Origin: Candidatus Bathyarchaeota archaeon
GTDB taxonomy: Archaea; Thermoproteota; Bathyarchaeia; Bathyarchaeales; Bathycorpusculaceae
NCBI GenBank assembly: GCA_963717465.1
Contig: OY970340.1
Span: 64,001 to 128,000 of the forward strand
Direction: 5' to 3'
DNA length: 64,000 bases
Shown here: positions 21,949 through 64,000 of the stretch, piece after piece
How positions within the stretch are numbered: the first letter of the stretch is position 1
Layout: every line of letters begins with the position of its first letter
Notes under the pieces: model-generated
The model's database searches: none
The model's input: only the letters and a program-made list of their open reading frames with translations
Told to the model about the DNA's origin: nothing
Position numbers and translations under genes: made by a program

Positions 21949-23310
21949 TTAAGTCTCCGCCTCTTTCTCTAACCAACTGGGAACCTTCACTGGAAACTTA
22001 TATACCTCTAAGGCTATTCTGTCCAATTCCTCCAAGTTCGCCAACGGAGTCTGAATATCAACATTACCGCCACCGCCACCGCCTGTCATTCTCAGGCCTT
22101 TCTGTTCAGTACTTGCAGTCCCACGCGCAGATCTTAATAAGCCTTTACGCATCGCTTCTCCACCCATCAACACTTCTTGTGTACCAAATGCAGCAGCCCA
22201 AAGGATTGATTGGTTTTTTGTTTTGTCGCGATTCTCAAACATGCGAATAGCGTCCTCATAAGCCGGGAGACCGACATCAGCACAAAGCCCTCCTCCTATA
22301 TGCTCATCAAAGTATTTAATGAACAACTCAGCGGTCTTTGCGTTGCAAAGTGGAGCAACAAAAGGAGGAATGTCCTTCTCTGTACAGAAATCTAAAATTG
22401 GTCCAAAGTGATAATCATAGGTTCTTGTGAACTCTTCAAAAGTTAAGTAAGCGCCTCCACCATCACAGTAAAACATCATGTTGCCTTTCGGATTCCCCTT
22501 AGTCATCATCGGTGCAGAAACAGTCAGCACTTCGTGTAATCTATCAATCTTCCTACAGACGTATTTCGAAACGGCTTTTAAAGCCAACTCTGCCAGTGGC
22601 GGATTCTTTCGCACATCCATCAAGAATTCTTTTGGTCCTCTAAGAAAAGTAGCAGAAGCAATTGGACCAGTACAGGCAGAACCAAGCGTTGGAAACTCCG
22701 GATTTATCTTACTAATTTGTTTTACAAGCCAGAGATAATATGGGTAATACCCTCTCAGGGCGGGGTCAGGTATGTTATCCATGAAAAATTCCAGCCTTGC
22801 CTTGGCTTCTGCTGGGTCTTTAGTTTGTGCGAAGCCTTCAACAGCCAAAGGCGGTCCATGCTCAACGTTCCTGAATTTACTGGTCAGCACTTCTTCTCCA
22901 AAGCTGACAGCACTGCAAAAGTGATAATCACCAACAAACTTTGAAGTTCTCAGCTCAAAACAAATTAAATGTAGCTCTGGATATTCACGAAAGTCATTGG
23001 CGTGGATTACTGAGGGCGTTTCAGCATAGCTGTCAAGTATCCTTCCATTATAGGCTGCACCTAATGATACACCAAATGGAAGGCGGTCAAGGCCAAGGCT
23101 ATTGAGGTCAGCTGGGGCGTCATCATACCAACATTTCATTATTCTTTCGCGTGGCATCAGTTTCTCCCTTTGAGCCTTCTCCACTGCTTTCTGGTGGCAT
23201 CTCTCAATTATGAGTTCTTCATAACCTGTCCACTCATGAGAAAAACCTGCCGCGTTCCAAGTGCGGGGATATTGCCCCCTGATTTCTACACTATTATAGT
23301 CCTGATTCAT
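21949..23310 (-). CDS. Divergent UroD/MtaA-fold (methylcobamide methyltransferase-like) protein
   Basis: MPRER, PDP...G, GP..SA..LRG..EFLMD...NP, C-terminal TP.ANL. Confidence 0.75.
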   Translation of the reverse strand: MNQDYNSVEIRGQYPRTWNAAGFSHEWTGYEELIIERCHQKAVEKAQREKLMPRERIMKCWYDDAPADLNSLGLDRLPFGVSLGAAYNGRILDSYAETPSVIHANDFREYPELHLICFELRTSKFVGDYHFCSAVSFGEEVLTSKFRNVEHGPPLAVEGFAQTKDPAEAKARLEFFMDNIPDPALRGYYPYYLWLVKQISKINPEFPTLGSACTGPIASATFLRGPKEFLMDVRKNPPLAELALKAVSKYVCRKIDRLHEVLTVSAPMMTKGNPKGNMMFYCDGGGAYLTFEEFTRTYDYHFGPILDFCTEKDIPPFVAPLCNAKTAELFIKYFDEHIGGGLCADVGLPAYEDAIRMFENRDKTKNQSILWAAAFGTQEVLMGGEAMRKGLLRSARGTASTEQKGLRMTGGGGGGNVDIQTPLANLEELDRIALEVYKFPVKVPSWLEKEAET

Positions 23311-24295: not shown

Positions 24296-25573
24296 TTAAG
24301 ATCCGAGCGGATAGCTGCAGATCTTCTCATACGTCAATTCTTCATTACGTAGACGGTAGGCAACCTCAAGGTTCTCAAGAGGAGTCATAGCATCGCCAAT
24401 AACCCCAGCGTTTGTCCTATGACCCTTAGTTTGATATTTGCCGAAAACCTTAGCCATCCTAATCAACTCATCGCGAATCTTTTCAACAAGACCATTCAGT
24501 ATTATCTTGGTGTTAGTAGCCGTTATTGCGTAGACTTTGCTATATTTAATAGCTACTGGGTATCCTTGCTCAATCGGCGGATGCTCTTGCATACAACTAA
24601 CAGCTCCTCCTTTATTCTCTTCCAAAATCCTCGCAACTTCATTCATGTATTCAGGGGGAGCAACAGGTGCAATGTATGGCGCAAAACCTTTTCTTGCAGC
24701 ATAAGGAATACTATCACCATAATGAAGTGGCAGTGTCTGCTTAAACTCGTCCAGAGTCATATATGCAGCAGAATCACACCACATTAAGCGGTTACCTTTA
24801 CCGTCTGCACCTATTGATTGTTCAAGAATTTTAGTGGCAGAATCAATTTTTTTATTCTGATAAATCGTAGCGATCTCGAGGGCCAATTCAGCCACTTCAG
24901 GATTCGTACGTAAATCCAGCAAGAATTCATTAACACCCCGAATGAAGCAGGCTGTGGTTATGGCACCAGCGCATGTCGACATCGTTATTGGAAGCACATC
25001 ACCCATTATTTTTTTGCCTTCTGTGCACATCCAATTGTATGATGGTCTTAAACCCCTCAGGTTTGGATCAGGTAGATTATCCATCAGCCATTCTAAATCT
25101 TCCTTATTTTTAGCGAATGGTTCGACAACTAACGGTGGACCATGAGCAATAGAACGAAACTTTCTTGATAGCACTTCTTCCCCAAAGCTGGACGGCGTGA
25201 AAAAGAAATCATCCGCAGGAAATTTCACCATATGGTACATCCTTGCAAGAAAATCCAAGTTTGGAAAGTCCAGCAAGTCTCTGTAAGAAATAGCAGGGGG
25301 ATACGGTGTAGCGAACGATTCGAATATGGGGTTAACAAGACCTCCTGCGCTTGAAGCTTGCCCAAGTACCTGATCATACGGGTCATCAGTGAAAAGAGTT
25401 TTAGTCCATCTTTCGCGCGGCATCATCTTTTGATTCTTTAGTGTATTCAGGATCTTCTCTCGCGCTCTCTCAATCATCAATTCTTCAGTTTCTGTCCAAT
25501 GGTATCTGTAGAGAATATTCCAATTTTTTGGATAATCATTCTCTACTTCTTCAGATTCGAAATTCAGTCTCAT
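24296..25573 (-). CDS. Divergent UroD/MtaA-fold protein, paralog of 21949..23310
   Basis: Shares EELMIER, MPRER, SFGEEVL..KFR...HGPPL, PDP.LRG and TPLENL with the neighbour. Confidence 0.75.
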   Translation of the reverse strand: MRLNFESEEVENDYPKNWNILYRYHWTETEELMIERAREKILNTLKNQKMMPRERWTKTLFTDDPYDQVLGQASSAGGLVNPIFESFATPYPPAISYRDLLDFPNLDFLARMYHMVKFPADDFFFTPSSFGEEVLSRKFRSIAHGPPLVVEPFAKNKEDLEWLMDNLPDPNLRGLRPSYNWMCTEGKKIMGDVLPITMSTCAGAITTACFIRGVNEFLLDLRTNPEVAELALEIATIYQNKKIDSATKILEQSIGADGKGNRLMWCDSAAYMTLDEFKQTLPLHYGDSIPYAARKGFAPYIAPVAPPEYMNEVARILEENKGGAVSCMQEHPPIEQGYPVAIKYSKVYAITATNTKIILNGLVEKIRDELIRMAKVFGKYQTKGHRTNAGVIGDAMTPLENLEVAYRLRNEELTYEKICSYPLGS

Positions 25574-56861: not shown

Positions 56862-58451
56862 TTAGAATCTTGCGCCTGTGCCTGATTTGTCTATTGTGTA
56901 GCCGCCGATCTGGTACATTTTATCGTATCTGGCTATGATTGCATTCATTCTGTCTGCTACTTCTTTTGGTGGCAGTGGAGCAGGGAAGTCTTTAATGATC
57001 TTCTGGGTTAAAGCGTTTGCACGATCATCCATGCATTTCTTGTCCTCGATCCATCGTAGATATTGTCTAACTTCCCACAAACCGTAACCGTGACGCATCG
57101 GAGCGAACATTAATTCCATCATATTTTTCACTGTATCCTTGTCCTTCATGAAGTCGCCTCTGGGACCCTTATTAAGCCACCCTTCAGGTTGGTAACTCTT
57201 GGCTGAAAAGTCAACGTCCCTGAAATACCACTTCATTATTCTAATCATTTCAGCGCATATAGCATAACCCATCATGTTGATTCCGTTTGGACCTACGGTT
57301 GTGGACCATTCTCCTGTCTGATCAGTACCGTTTTGGAATGCATTAAGCAAATGCCAACTCATCATGCCGTTTTGCGTATCAGAACCACCAGCGCCAACCG
57401 ATCCTACGGCTTGGCCAGGCCACATCGTAGCTTTTGGTCGACTGTAATTGCGGTGCCAGAAGTTCACGTGAATAGCAAGTGCCTTACTAAATATTTCTTC
57501 AGTGGTTGCTAATTGCTGAGTGTATGGGTCCATAGGCATGACCAGATCGTAAGTCATAACTGGGACATGGCCTTTCCCAACTCCGTTCAATCCCAAACTT
57601 AAACCTACTGACATCGATAAAGCTGCGGCAACAGTAACTGCGTAAGCTCCCGTTAAGCTGCATGGACCTTGGAATCCAGGTATGCAAACATCTGTGTAGT
57701 CTATAAGCAGAGGTCTGCTCTTCGCCCAGCCTTCTAAAGTTCCGCTCATTCTGTCACTTGTTTTTTGGCCGTAAACTAGACCTGGTGTGTCTCCATGGTT
57801 AGTTATGAATGGTCTCTTCGCAAGCTCATCAAATCCTCCGAGAACCTCAGCGGCTAAATCAGTGTAACATTCAATATGATCAATTGCGTCAATATGCCAA
57901 ATATGCTTTGTAGTGCATTGAATAGTACTGTTGAGATCATGAGTATCCACTGGCAAACCAGCCTCAGCCAAATCCATAGGTAAGTATATGGGGCTAGTCA
58001 TGTCATACTCGGGGAAGTACTCAACAACTTTTTGCTCTTTCCAGTTGTCAGCATCTACTCCATCTCGGAATTCAAATAGTCGTGTATCAGGATTCCATTT
58101 TGCATAAAGGGCCATTATGCCGAAAGCTCCAACAAAGACATTGTTGCTTCCTGCTTGCATAAAGCAGTCTTCTTTAGGAGCCCTACCTGGCAGAACCAAG
58201 TTGCTCGGCACTGCGTCTATGCCTTCGACTGCAATAGCTTCAGGAATTTTTACGATTCCCTTCTTCTCATCAACAACGGTGCAACCTATGTCTTTGTAGA
58301 TTTTTTGAAGCTTAGGTGTGAGACCTCCAACCCCAACTCTTTCTAATAGATAAACTGCGGCTTGATGTATTGACATTAGTTCTTCTCTCGTCGCTATAGG
58401 CGGAGAAAATCTCTTAGGTATATTTGTTCCAGTTCTCATTTTTCTTTTCAA
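56862..58451 (-). CDS. Trimethylamine methyltransferase MttB-family protein, pyrrolysine-free, divergent
   Basis: IH.A...LLE.VG, V.IP, G..GP.SL.G, D.Q.G, GP.G.F....T, P.PLP; no amber codon. Confidence 0.85.
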   Translation of the reverse strand: MKRKMRTGTNIPKRFSPPIATREELMSIHQAAVYLLERVGVGGLTPKLQKIYKDIGCTVVDEKKGIVKIPEAIAVEGIDAVPSNLVLPGRAPKEDCFMQAGSNNVFVGAFGIMALYAKWNPDTRLFEFRDGVDADNWKEQKVVEYFPEYDMTSPIYLPMDLAEAGLPVDTHDLNSTIQCTTKHIWHIDAIDHIECYTDLAAEVLGGFDELAKRPFITNHGDTPGLVYGQKTSDRMSGTLEGWAKSRPLLIDYTDVCIPGFQGPCSLTGAYAVTVAAALSMSVGLSLGLNGVGKGHVPVMTYDLVMPMDPYTQQLATTEEIFSKALAIHVNFWHRNYSRPKATMWPGQAVGSVGAGGSDTQNGMMSWHLLNAFQNGTDQTGEWSTTVGPNGINMMGYAICAEMIRIMKWYFRDVDFSAKSYQPEGWLNKGPRGDFMKDKDTVKNMMELMFAPMRHGYGLWEVRQYLRWIEDKKCMDDRANALTQKIIKDFPAPLPPKEVADRMNAIIARYDKMYQIGGYTIDKSGTGARF

Positions 58452-58496
58452 TCTCCCGTTATTTATTTGAATCTGTAAGTCTAAGTCGCCTTGTTA

Positions 58497-58610
58497 GGTA
58501 TTTAACTTAAATCATAAGCGATTCTCTTCTTCTGCTACAAAACTTGTCTGCCCACAGAAATAACCATCAAGATTGCTTCATTATGAGACGTTTTTTAATA
58601 CATTGTGCAA
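58497..58610 (-). promoter_or_regulatory. Promoter/operator module copy 2 (upstream of mttB)
   Basis: ggtatttaacttaaatcataa / gctacaaaa / ttgcttc / tacattgtgca. Confidence 0.7.
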
Positions 58611-58776
58611 AATTTTTTTTGGCTTTTAACGAGAAAAGCAGTAAGACGCGATTAGTGAAAGAAGTCTTCAGGAAAAAAGTCTTGCGTAACACCAGGCGTT
58701 TTCAGTATATAAACACATTCGGCTTCTAAGCGACATACAAAAATTAAGAAAATAAAAAGGGGAGTGTAGTTGTTTT

Positions 58777-61092
58777 TTATGGTCCAATAGGTCCGATGTT
58801 GGCTGAGTACACTTTTGCAAGATTAACTTTGAAGCACCAAGCTCCAAGTTCAGGACTAAGCTGCTCTGGACTATCTGGCACTGTAACGTTGATGTTCCAG
58901 TCTGCCCATCCATAAAGTGTTGGTTCCTCAGCTGGTAATTCAGGACGCCACCAGCCATGCTCGGGTGAAACGATTTTTGGATTTACTCCGAAGTCGTAAC
59001 GTACTGTCTGCATGCATCTGCCAAGCGGCGTCTCAATGTAAATCCATTCGCCATCGCCAATGCCCATGTTACGAGCCGTCAGTGGATGCATTTTTACACG
59101 TGGAAACGGACGCAAATGACGCATCAATGTTAAATGTCGATGTTCGCCATGCTGTGCTTCTTGGAATCTGGCTCCACTGCACATAATCAACGGATAATCT
59201 TTTGCAATATCAGGCGCACTTACCGGAGTCCAAGCGCACTCCACATAGTACGGCAGAGGATCAAACCCAAAGTCCTCCAGAATCGTTGAGTAGAATACAA
59301 CTTTGCCTTCAGGGGTTCCGAAGCCTCTAATCAATCCAGTGGTTGGATCAATTTGCTCGTACTTCTTGAACGTGGGGTTCCATGGTGGTACACCTTTCCA
59401 TTCGCCTATAACTTGCTTACGTGTCCAGCCTACTGGCTCATAGAACCAATCTTGGAACTGCTCTAAAGTCTTCCATTTCCAAACTCTATCGATTTTTTCG
59501 TTACCCAACATTTTAGCAGCAATGTGTCGGAATATTACCGCGTCGTCTTCTAAGTCCCACAATCCCGGTATCTTTTGAGCTACTGCACGATCGCCTGCAA
59601 TCTCAAACTCGATTGATCCTTGACATGAAATGGTTGCATATCCAGAAGGTCTCTCGAATTGACTAGTACCAGGCAGCACATAATCTGCTAACATGGCCTC
59701 AGGTGTCATCGAAGCGCATTCCACATAAACGAACAGTTCAAGCTTCTTAAGAGCTTCATAAATCTTCTTAGTGTTCGGATAACCTCGCATTGGACCTATT
59801 TCACCAGCCAACATCGCCTTAACAGGGTAAGGTTTTTCCGTCAAAATTGCCTCTATCGTTGCAGGCCAATTTGGAGCAATTGGTCCGGTATGTGGACCAC
59901 CCTTCCAATAGCCTTTGTCCATTCCTGCCTCAACAAGCGCTGCACCACCTGGCATCGTTAGCATCTTATACTTGTCCGACCCTATCTGTTTCTCCATTAT
60001 GCCCATATCAGTTTCATTAGCACAATCTGCAGCGGCTTCAGCACCCGAATAGAACTTGGGTTTTTGGTGCAGATATTCTCCGCCTTCTATGTCTATGTTG
60101 CCTGTTAACGCGGGCAGCATATATTTTGATCGAACGTTGTTTAATGAGTTCCTGCCTGCCGATTCGATTGCATAACCGAATGGGAAAGTGCATGGACTGT
60201 TTTTCACTACCCACCTAGCTGCCTCTCTGATTCTCTCGGCAGGAATCCAAGTTATTTCCGCAGCTTTCTCAGGAGTATACTGCTTGGCTCTTTCTTTGAG
60301 CTTGTCAAATCCAAAAGTCCACTTCTCCACGAAATCATGATCGTACAAGTCTTCTTCGATGATCACGTTTATCATAGCCATATTTAGTGCAGTGTCAGTT
60401 CCAGGCCTAATCGCCAACCACATTTCAGAAAGTCTAGTTGTTTCCGTATATTTTGGATCGACATTGAGCATTTTTACGCCAGCCTCTATTCCTGCAACAA
60501 ATCCTGGCCAAGAATACGTCCAAGATTCACTTGGGTTTGTGCCAGTTGTAAAGATACCCTTTGTTTTACCGGGAGTTATCATTGCATACGTTAATCCCAC
60601 GCCGTAGCCTAATCCTAAGGCTTGGTACGTGGGTCCAGCTCATGTGGTAGCTGCAGCAGAACCCCAGTTTGGGGAGCCTATCAACATACAGAGTTGATAC
60701 AGTCCCAAAGCAAGGTTTGCGGCTCGACCTGTGCCGTGGAATCCGCATACGGATTCGCCGCCATTCTTTGCTATGATTTCTTTTAGTTTATCAGATATTT
60801 CACTAATTGCTTGTTCCCAAGATATTTTCTGCCATTTGCCTTCGCCACGCTTGCCTATACGCTTCATCGGGTACATTGGCCTATCCTTATGATAAATGTA
60901 CTCAACACCATACTTCCACTTCTGACAATAAGGACCAGGATTAAATGGACTATCCCAATCAGGCTCAATCTTTGTGATTTTTCCGTTCTCAACCGTCTCG
61001 ACAAGTTGGCAGGAACCAGTACTGCAAAAACCGCAAACGCATCTATGAATCCCATCGAAACTCTTTGGATCTTCAAGTTTTTCACTCATCAT
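58777..61092 (-). CDS. Cytoplasmic Mo/W-bisPGD oxidoreductase (DMSO reductase superfamily, acetylene-hydratase-like architecture), 771 aa with in-frame TGA at codon 151; candidate selenoprotein
   Basis: ORFs 60640..61092 and 58777..60600 share a frame and are separated by one TGA plus 13 sense codons; CGFCSTGSC..C Fe-S motif, RGEGKW..ISW, IRPGTD, ADYVLP, TPEGK, C-terminal molybdopterin-binding domain. Confidence 0.85.
60596..60633 (-). other. Candidate bacterial-type SECIS stem-loop inside the CDS
   Basis: UGA-GCUGGA-CCCACG-UA-CC-A-AGCCU-UAGGAUU-AGGCU-AC-GG-CGUGGG. Confidence 0.6.
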
Positions 61093-61166
61093 TCTATCTC
61101 CTATTTTCTCTTTAACCCATTTTTATTGTGCTTTCAACACAAGCCTTAACATATGCGGTCTGATTA

Positions 61167-61279
61167 CTATTTAAAGTTGAATTATAACCGTTTTTTGCTT
61201 TTGCTACAAAAATAGGAATTATCATAAAATAGCAGGGACACTTGTCGCATTATGAATAAAATTTTGATACAATGTGCAA
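61167..61279 (-). promoter_or_regulatory. Promoter/operator module copy 3 (upstream of the oxidoreductase)
   Basis: tatttaaagttgaattataa / gctacaaaa / tcgcatt / tacaatgtgca; adjacent atatgcgNtctgat shared with copy 1. Confidence 0.7.
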
Positions 61280-61434
61280 TTTCCTTTTTTCTGGTTTGCA
61301 TTGCAAAACAAAACAAGTACTAAACACAATTCAACAACACTATTCTTGGATCTTTCCGTTGAACTATTAAACAAAAGATGAAAGCGCTAAAAAAACCTAA
61401 TTCACACCCATAGATATTGAGTCCTTAACTTAAG

Positions 61435-62762: not shown

Positions 62763-63341
62763 TTAAGAACGGGATTTAAGGGGTTTTCGAGTTGAAATTT
62801 CAGGTTGGAATAAAGCATTCAAGCTTCGCAATGAGAACGGCCTTGGAAACTTATTGCCTGTGCGGAACATAACGCTACGTGTTTCCACATGTGGTCGCTG
62901 AGGTAATAACAGTGTTTCTTTTTGCACTTCCTTAGACAATTCTACGAAACCATCATAGTTCTTATGCACAGATATCATGACCCAGTTCGTTGATTCTAAG
63001 CCTTGATCCTCTATAGCGCAAAGCACTTCAGGATGTCTCTGCATTAATTCACGAACTTTGCTAGTTTGTTCTGGTGTTATCACTTCAGTAGTTGAGGCAA
63101 ATGTAAATACGATAACATCTAGCCCCATTTTGTACAAGTTAGGGATTATAGTGTACTCTTTTATGTAACCATCCTGCTCCAGCTTCCTTCTCCTCCTAGA
63201 CAATGTCGTGTTACTAATTCCTAAAATTCTAGCAATTTCTCTATCGCTTTTACCGCCTAGCGCCATTAAGGCAAATAGAACTTTCAGGTTTTCCAAGGCT
63301 TTTCTATCTAACGTATCGTGCGTGCTCAAAAACTTATTCAT
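62763..63341 (-). CDS. Lrp/AsnC-like regulator (paralog of 54833..55441)
   Basis: LKVLFALMALGGKSDREIA...NTTLSRRRRKLEQ.GYIKEYT. Confidence 0.88.
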   Translation of the reverse strand: MNKFLSTHDTLDRKALENLKVLFALMALGGKSDREIARILGISNTTLSRRRRKLEQDGYIKEYTIIPNLYKMGLDVIVFTFASTTEVITPEQTSKVRELMQRHPEVLCAIEDQGLESTNWVMISVHKNYDGFVELSKEVQKETLLLPQRPHVETRSVMFRTGNKFPRPFSLRSLNALFQPEISTRKPLKSRS

Positions 63342-63484: not shown

Positions 63485-64000
63485 CTATGCATCAATGGGG
63501 TTGATTGTCTTGCCATCCCGCTTGTTTTTGACGCCATGCAATGGTTTGACAGATTGAAACAATGATTCCATGTTTCTGAACGAGAATGGTTTTGGAAACA
63601 TCTTATCCGTATGAAACATGAAAGTGTGAGTTTCGATGTGCGGTGGTTGATGAAGGGATAGTAATTCGTTTTGCACTTTTTTAGACAGGTCTATGAAACC
63701 ATCATAGTTCTTGTGCACAGTTATGCCAAGCCAGTTTGTACCTTCTAAACCTTGATCTTGTAGTATGCACAGAATTTCGGGATATTTCTGAATTAAATCA
63801 TGAGCCTCTTTAGATTGCACTGGTGTCACAACATCAGTAGTAGATGAAAAAGAAAACACTATAACCTCTAATCCCATTTTATGCAAATCAGGAATTATAG
63901 TATACTCTTTTATGTAACCATCCTGCTCCAGCTTCCTTCTCCTCCTAGACAATGTGGTATTACTAATCTCCAAAATCCGGGCAATCTCTCTGTCACTTTT
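63485..64000 (-). CDS. Lrp/AsnC-like regulator, third paralog, 5' end off the window
   Basis: KSDREIARILEISNTTLSRRRRKLEQDGYIKEYT continues to the window edge. Confidence 0.88.
   Translation of the reverse strand, partial: KSDREIARILEISNTTLSRRRRKLEQDGYIKEYTIIPDLHKMGLEVIVFSFSSTTDVVTPVQSKEAHDLIQKYPEILCILQDQGLEGTNWLGITVHKNYDGFIDLSKKVQNELLSLHQPPHIETHTFMFHTDKMFPKPFSFRNMESLFQSVKPLHGVKNKRDGKTINPIDA

Follow-up and report, generated by a model that had tools for sequence, protein, structure and literature searches.

How an archaeon tells a UGA codon that stands for selenocysteine (Sec) from one that ends a gene is the question raised by a molybdenum or tungsten (Mo/W) enzyme gene in contig OY970340.1 of a Candidatus Bathyarchaeota archaeon (assembly GCA_963717465.1), positions 64,001 to 128,000 of which, a stretch of 64,000 nucleotides (nt), are here called the window. 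The frame of this gene contains a TGA, and the mRNA directly 3' of this codon can fold into a hairpin that occupies the place of a bacterial Sec insertion sequence (SECIS). According to textbook and review accounts, SECIS elements lie in the open reading frame (ORF) only in bacteria and in untranslated regions (UTRs) in archaea and eukaryotes, a rule that an archaeal clade with ORF-internal elements would break. The analysis described here indicates that the hairpin is probably a cis-acting Sec recoding signal inside the ORF, the SECIS equivalent of a small archaeal clade that uses archaeal machinery; this clade is labelled Bathyarchaeia by the named homolog records. The main features, in window coordinates, are as follows.

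58777 to 61092, minus strand: gene for a predicted Mo/W bis(molybdopterin guanine dinucleotide) oxidoreductase, acetylene-hydratase-like, 771 codons (translation, Pfam, structure match, homolog alignment).
60640 to 60642, minus strand: UGA predicted to be read as selenocysteine, Sec151 (the same in-frame TGA in 11 paralogs; a genome with tRNA-Sec, SepSecS, PSTK-aSelB and SelD).
60634 to 60639, minus strand: spacer of 6 nt, GCUGGA, separating the UGA from the base at +10 where pairing begins (the same in 11 paralogs, HdrA, MvhD and the second UGA of locus L158).
60596 to 60633, minus strand: candidate recoding hairpin, 38 nt (folding, covariation count, invariant codons).

The frame from 61092 to 58777 on the minus strand is broken once, by the TGA at 60642-60640. 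When it is read through, the 771-residue protein contains the Pfam domains Molybdop_Fe4S4, Molybdopterin and Molydop_binding; its best NCBIfam matches are PhsA and FdhA, both below cut-off, and among solved structures acetylene hydratase comes nearest (2e7z, E 1.5e-102, residues 18-755). By these matches the enzyme is assigned to the acetylene-hydratase-like clade of the dimethyl sulfoxide reductase superfamily, the reaction it catalyses being putative. The TGA is placed at a Sec/Cys position because the column of U151 holds an invariant Cys in all ten full-length homologs aligned (39-44% identity), and residue 151 is, from what is known of the family, presumably a metal ligand. A search of genome contigs with the single protein found nothing; with an alignment as query it yielded wider relatives, all at 41% identity or less, in which the ligand codon is Cys at 46 of 47 read sites and Gly at the remaining one. 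Since TGA is also an ordinary stop in this genome, where it terminates 350 of 1381 long open frames, a signal that discriminates Sec codons is required.

Read on the minus-strand RNA, the region runs UGA GCUGGA CCCACG UA CC A AGCCU UAGGAUU AGGCU A CGG CGUGGG. The basal stem CCCACG/CGUGGG pairs positions 60633-60628 with 60601-60596 and the upper stem AGCCU/AGGCU pairs 60622-60618 with 60610-60606, the two being separated by a middle part, CC(A)/(U)GG, with an internal loop and a bulge. The 7-nt apical loop UAGGAUU (60617-60611) spans +26 to +32 from the UGA and carries Gs at +28 and +29; the displayed apical loops of all 11 paralogs contain a G. In the bSECISearch model the apical loop lies 16-37 nt from the UGA and has a conserved G, as it does here. 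Folding of the 47-nt stretch reproduces exactly the stems and loop that a preliminary description had drawn 6 nt 3' of the UGA, at -18.8 kcal/mol (z -2.37; equalled by 3 of 200 dinucleotide shuffles), and when 45 nt at a time are folded along the gene and its flanks, the hairpin is second in stability among the 2757 sliding windows (-19.4 kcal/mol; mean -6.5, sd 3.3). First place among the 45-nt folds of the gene goes to GAAUCCG...CGGAUUC at 60717-60761 on the minus strand (-21.4 kcal/mol), which lies about 75-120 nt upstream of the UGA and occurs in this copy only, not being kept in the paralogs. The fold of a single sequence is thus suggestive yet not compelling, and the case is carried by comparison.

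The genome, a single contig of 3.05 Mb with 40% GC, holds 11 copies of the Mo-enzyme gene with a TGA at the same codon, eight of which appear intact (p1-p7 at 72-78% identity, p11 at 42%). The hairpin is folded by all 11, with the first paired base at +10, or at +11 in p11. In p2 and p4 two Leu codons have changed synonymously, so that the upper stem closes with C-G instead of U-A; p7 and p9 encode other residues in the upper stem and retain the hairpin with another pairing sequence, and p11 retains the six-pair basal stem as CCAACG/CGUUGG. Over the 14 named pairs of the 11-row alignment, 89% of cells pair, compared with 23-47% when the partners are slid by 1-3 columns, and five pairs are changed on both sides, a number reached by 2 of 500 shuffles. 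Synonymous sites tell the same story: across eight aligned paralogs, synonymous diversity reaches its minimum over 697 windows of 14 codons in the one that begins 3 codons after the TGA (0.216; mean 0.436; next lowest 0.228, elsewhere in the gene), and the full codons of the basal stem, CCC, ACG, GGC, GTG and GGA, are invariant in 8/8. The three broken copies, p8 (130832-133145), p9 (2797283-2799584) and p10 (616633-618946), are disrupted by frameshifts or stops, and in each of them UGA and hairpin persist; a C-terminal fragment of the enzyme lies at 1076144-1076551.

The same arrangement recurs in unrelated genes, a check that the preliminary description had proposed. When 2394 in-frame TGA contexts of the genome were ranked by the minimum free energy of the next 52 nt, HdrA came first and MvhD second; their two TGAs share one 858-codon frame, which Pfam resolves into an HdrA-like flavoprotein fused to an MvhD/FlpD domain, and presumably fall where HdrA and VhuD are known to carry Sec. 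Of the 11 Mo-enzyme sites, ten were among the top 28 (the copy in the window was 16th), and the two UGAs of locus L158, a candidate selenoprotein, were 15th and 43rd. The stem starts exactly at +10, after a 6-nt spacer, at the Mo-enzyme, HdrA, MvhD and second L158 sites. Taken singly, these hairpins have modest z-scores, from -1.4 to -3.2.

A comparison of Sec and Cys forms of one gene was afforded by hdrA, for which five genomes of the genus with a two-TGA hdrA-mvhD were set against 26 Cys orthologs or paralogs of the same genus. Fold energies at the HdrA site range from -25.8 to -28.4 kcal/mol in the Sec forms and from -4.9 to -14.0 in the Cys forms. The two ranges do not overlap, even though Sec and Cys forms share the same five residues directly after the site. 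In five further Sec orthologs, of which four belong to another genus of this family, the energies are -20.7 to -26.8 kcal/mol, so that the hairpin is present in 10/10 Sec orthologs and 0/26 Cys orthologs. Synonymous diversity in the five full-length Sec hdrA-mvhD genes was compared over 817 windows: those just behind the first UGA take ranks 1-3 from the lowest (0.033-0.067 against 0.324), and those behind the second take ranks 22-37. The hairpin is therefore real, conserved beyond what the protein demands, tied to UGA and not to Cys codons, and set in a fixed register in unrelated genes.

The bacterial SECIS is bound by the C-terminal winged-helix domains of SelB and operates together with SelA-dependent Sec synthesis. 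None of these bacterial components was found here. The best score for SelA in the genome is 20.5 bits (TIGR00474, cut-off 267.9), the SelB-wing_3 domain (PF09107) has no match genome-wide whereas the E. coli control matches, and Pfam finds no SelB-wing domain in either of the two SelB proteins, in both of which it detects aSelB_III. The genome encodes SepSecS (488.9 bits), two tRNA-Sec genes with anticodon UCA, and two ORFs of about 740 residues that join PSTK (KTI12 family) to an archaeal SelB (GTP_EFTU, D2, aSelB_III and a short C-terminal domain). All five additional Sec-HdrA genomes tested carry this fusion at a distance of 5-8 kb from hdrA; in one of them a TAA interrupts it. Of the bacterial-type Sec insertion proposed in the preliminary description, the part that stands is the position of the element, in the coding sequence just after the UGA and linked to Sec; the winged-helix SelB that it implied was not found, SelB being of archaeal type and PSTK-fused, with no SelA over cut-off and SepSecS present. 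It is thus supported that the bacterial-like feature of the hairpin is its position and not its reader.

The two fusion genes lie outside the window, at G000:C1:952706-954940 (plus strand; L001) and G000:C1:2827363-2829725 (minus strand; L002/L012). The GTPase motifs GHVDHGKT and DLPGH of the first SelB copy are altered to GHCKHGKT and EMPGN in the second, which adjoins its own tRNA-Sec. No published description was found of a duplication of the fusion with one divergent copy; the fusion itself has been published.

A conventional archaeal element was sought in the UTRs. In SECIS of the GAA_A type an internal loop, GAA_A, divides two stems, the upper of which contains three S-S pairs. A descriptor written for this type gave no match in the 3' flanks of 14 genes (background 0.002 per 530 nt) and none in the 5' flanks of 12 genes, in agreement with the earlier remark that no GAA_A element follows the stop at 58777; the hairpin sequence itself contains no GAA. 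In the 250-nt 3' flanks of the Mo-enzyme and HdrA genes, the best 60-nt folds reach -7.6 to -14.4 kcal/mol, compared with a mean of -14.6 for 150 ordinary genes, and 220 nt of 5' flank held no stable or shared structure. The transcript may also end soon after the stop, as suggested by one further feature of the window.

58738 to 58758, minus strand: oligo-T run, from about 20 nt after the stop (comparable T-runs after the stops of paralogs).

This run resembles an archaeal terminator and would leave little room for a 3'UTR element. Similar T-runs are found 15-35 nt after the stop in nine paralogs whose true 3' end was read and in hdrA-mvhD, and in p6 the next gene begins about 50 nt after the stop. 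An archaeal-type SelB combined with a UTR SECIS had been named beforehand as one outcome that would speak against a bacterial-type reading of the hairpin; the archaeal SelB was found, but the UTR element was not.

How such a hairpin could act may be pictured as follows. With the UGA in the ribosomal A site, the 6-nt spacer would bring the foot of the stem to the channel through which mRNA enters. The hairpin may there slow the ribosome and disfavour release-factor action, and it may also recruit the PSTK-aSelB fusion protein with its Sec-tRNA-Sec, or favour that complex. The hairpin would on this account be necessary for Sec insertion, which is inferred, as are the entry-channel geometry and the identity of the binder.

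Several observations weigh against a Sec recoding signal in the ORF or limit the case for it. Within its 91-nt context the hairpin has a z-score of -1.48, with 15 of 200 shuffles as good, and an Rfam search of 58300-61300 with E up to 10 gave no SECIS match, only chance long non-coding RNA and frameshift matches. The structure tested for covariation came from one aligned row, and paralogs and congeners share kinship, so that the counts overstate independence. The separation of Sec and Cys forms, which had been proposed as a check, is clean for HdrA and not elsewhere: at the MvhD site the ranges overlap (Sec -23.0 to -24.9, Cys -10.6 to -25.7 kcal/mol), and 10 of the 46 Cys homologs of the Mo enzyme fold at -17 kcal/mol or below (mean -14.4, sd 3.3), a weak control because many of them come from GC-richer bacteria. 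As regards the UTRs, the GAA_A descriptor had no positive control and kink-turn elements of the Asgard or eukaryote-like kind were judged by fold stability alone. Finally, selD (L177, G000:C1:951663-952716, plus strand), directly upstream of the first PSTK-aSelB gene, has an in-frame TGA at 951702, the catalytic Cys/Sec codon, and the hairpin expected there was missing: no stable fold follows this UGA (-9.6 kcal/mol, z +0.96). In nine related genomes this codon is TGA in two and TGC or TGT in seven. The 48 nt from the UGA onward are identical at 43-45 of 48 positions among three TGA forms, compared with 68-70% gene-wide, and at 30-37 of 48 between TGA and Cys forms; nucleotide constraint after the UGA is thus present in selD, but not as a stable +10 hairpin.

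One alternative is that the structure is unrelated to recoding and is a by-product of the conserved amino acids (GPT...YGVG) and codon choice, or serves mRNA stability or another role. The basal stem does encode conserved residues, the single-sequence z-scores are modest, some Cys homologs fold equally well, and the gene has another hairpin of equal stability, at 60717-60761, that is confined to this copy; yet synonymous sites are frozen exactly at the hairpin, p7, p9 and p11 keep it in other sequence despite different residues, the +10 register is common to four unrelated Sec sites, and the Sec and Cys forms of HdrA separate cleanly within one genus. This explanation is already disfavoured and appears quite improbable. 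The missing selD hairpin speaks for a second alternative, in which the hairpins are helpers, that is, read-through stimulators in the manner of the eukaryotic Sec redefinition element (SRE), with the true SECIS elsewhere in the transcript or of a type not modelled here. The Sec machinery of archaeal/eukaryal type would suit such a role, the UTR scans were confined to one descriptor and fold stability, and PMC4561486 reports that SRE stem-loops near the UGA promote recoding and enhance Sec insertion together with a SECIS. Against a helper stand the flanks, with no stable or shared structure in 250 nt on the 3' side or 220 nt on the 5' side, the T-runs 15-35 nt past the stops together with the closeness of the next gene to p6, and the HdrA-MvhD mRNA, in which each of two UGAs has its own hairpin as in bacteria; a pure helper is accordingly considered unlikely, though less so than a by-product. 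Least probable of all, and already largely refuted, is the acquisition of a bacterial gene with its SECIS attached, read by a bacterial-type SelB. The hairpin position and the loop Gs match the bacterial model and many homologs of the enzyme are bacterial (Dehalococcoidia, Eggerthellaceae, Desulfobacterota; 30-41% identity), but the bacterial homologs seen carry Cys, the genome has neither SelA over cut-off nor SelB-wing_3 and both its SelB proteins are archaeal, and the +10 arrangement is shared by archaeal HdrA/MvhD genes, here and in nine related archaeal genomes, against the import that the preliminary description had offered as its second option.

The preferred reading, an ORF-internal Sec signal used with archaeal machinery, combines traits of several known systems. 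Like the bacterial SECIS of E. coli fdhF and fdnG, each stem-loop lies in the ORF directly 3' of a Sec UGA, one per UGA, with an apical-loop G about 25 nt after the UGA, and the case at hand is again a Mo/W enzyme with Sec at the metal-ligand site. It differs from them in its fixed 6-nt spacer followed by a GC-rich 6-bp basal stem, in the lack of an Rfam SECIS match, and in a host without SelA over cut-off or a SelB winged-helix domain, in which Sec is made via PSTK/SepSecS. With the euryarchaeal GAA_A elements (Methanococcus, Methanopyrus) and the eukaryotic SECIS-like elements of Asgard archaea it has in common the archaeal machinery (tRNA-Sec, PSTK, SepSecS, aSelB) and the selenoprotein families HdrA, VhuD/MvhD and SelD; unlike those elements, which are located in UTRs and have a GAA_A internal loop or a kink-turn core, it lies in the coding sequence and has no GAA_A. 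The archaeal exception to a 3' location is a 5'UTR element. Two reviews place archaeal SECIS in 3'UTRs (PMC13188914, 2026; PMC8211752), the second with one documented exception, as does the introduction of an Asgard study (PMC11227280).

The likeness to the SRE of SEPN1 and SPS2 consists in an ORF stem-loop near the UGA in a host with eukaryote-like Sec synthesis, and the SEPN1 SRE also begins 6 nt after the UGA. The SRE, however, acts together with a 3'UTR SECIS, and none was found here, kink-turn types being judged by fold stability only. PMC4561486 states that the SRE disfavours termination and proposes that eukaryotic SRE stem-loops next to the UGA derive from bacterial SECIS; an ORF-internal archaeal hairpin would have its place between them. 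Mukai et al. (2022, PMC8762117) described the PSTK-aSelB fusion of Bathyarchaeota and Archaeoglobi, and the same fused ORF is found here in two copies and in 5/5 related Sec-HdrA genomes tested. The word SECIS is absent from that paper and from an mBio paper (PMC5424206), and the location of the recoding signal is not described in PMC8762117. In the literature on Bathyarchaeota or Bathyarchaeia with SECIS, selenocysteine, PSTK or SelB, no ORF-internal archaeal element was found, the supplements of PMC8762117 (Figure 9B, Supplementary Figure S3) being outside its scope.

A wider proposal is conceivable, if rather doubtful: that in an archaeal lineage with Sec synthesis of archaeal/eukaryal type, hairpins inside the ORF suffice on their own to decode UGA, with the PSTK-aSelB fusion or the ribosome's mRNA entry site itself as the reader. 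ORF-adjacent SECIS would then be ancestral or repeatedly accessible rather than peculiar to bacteria, and these hairpins would be the missing link, postulated in PMC4561486, between bacterial SECIS and eukaryotic SRE. To our knowledge, no archaeal SECIS-binding factor has been identified, and the fusion would be a concrete candidate for this long-sought reader. If the signal is as proposed, UGA, six nucleotides and a hairpin would amount to a compact, portable recoding cassette, with a bearing on how SECIS elements moved during evolution. Archaeal selenoprotein finders that rely on 3'UTR elements would miss such genes; gene callers split at TGA the 11 Mo-enzyme copies, the Sec-HdrA-MvhD fusion and a possible URO-D-like selenoprotein.

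The latter, L158 (G000:C1:2822990-2824228, minus strand), is a 413-codon frame with two in-frame TGAs, proposed as a candidate new selenoprotein. It is weakly URO-D/MtaA-like (E 0.0077, below cut-off); its first TGA aligns with a Cys conserved in five paralogs and the second lies one residue off. The locus is situated about 3 kb from the second Sec gene cluster and was not found in four Sec-using congeners. Codon statistics, applied de novo to in-frame TGAs, gave 267 candidates, of which 20 were submitted to Pfam (11 picked by hairpin, nine by coding score). Most of these turned out to be neighbouring genes that share a frame, or to end at a genuine stop (BcrAD ATPase, FTR); because just 20 of the 267 went to Pfam, the selenoproteome listing is incomplete.

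The use of Sec is patchy in the genus, a two-TGA hdrA-mvhD being found in 5 of 61 sampled genomes. In the related genomes G398, G260, G275, G402 and G272 the Sec hdrA lies 5-8 kb from the PSTK-aSelB fusion, as if both belonged to one Sec island. The Mo enzyme was not found in five Sec-using congeners, nor in 60 relatives searched, except for one genome of the same order; among 400 genomes of the class it was found solely as a Cys homolog, at 34-42% identity, in 22. Other assemblies contain Sec-type relatives, the closest being P0003, P0005-P0008 and P0010. A TGA-bearing partial homolog, G224:C50, was also seen among the class genomes, its site not being located by motif. Cys homologs at 30-41% identity often come from gut Eggerthellaceae (Gordonibacter, Ellagibacter, Raoultibacter), Dehalococcoidia and Desulfobacterota, and their clade presumably includes the catechol dehydroxylases, which hints at aromatic substrates.

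Around the Mo-enzyme gene, an MttB (trimethylamine methyltransferase) superfamily gene lies downstream (56862-58451, minus strand) and two small winged-helix regulators lie upstream (62763-63341 and 63485-63973, both minus strand). The window also contains two URO-D-like paralogs of L158, at 22558-23295 and 24350-25546.

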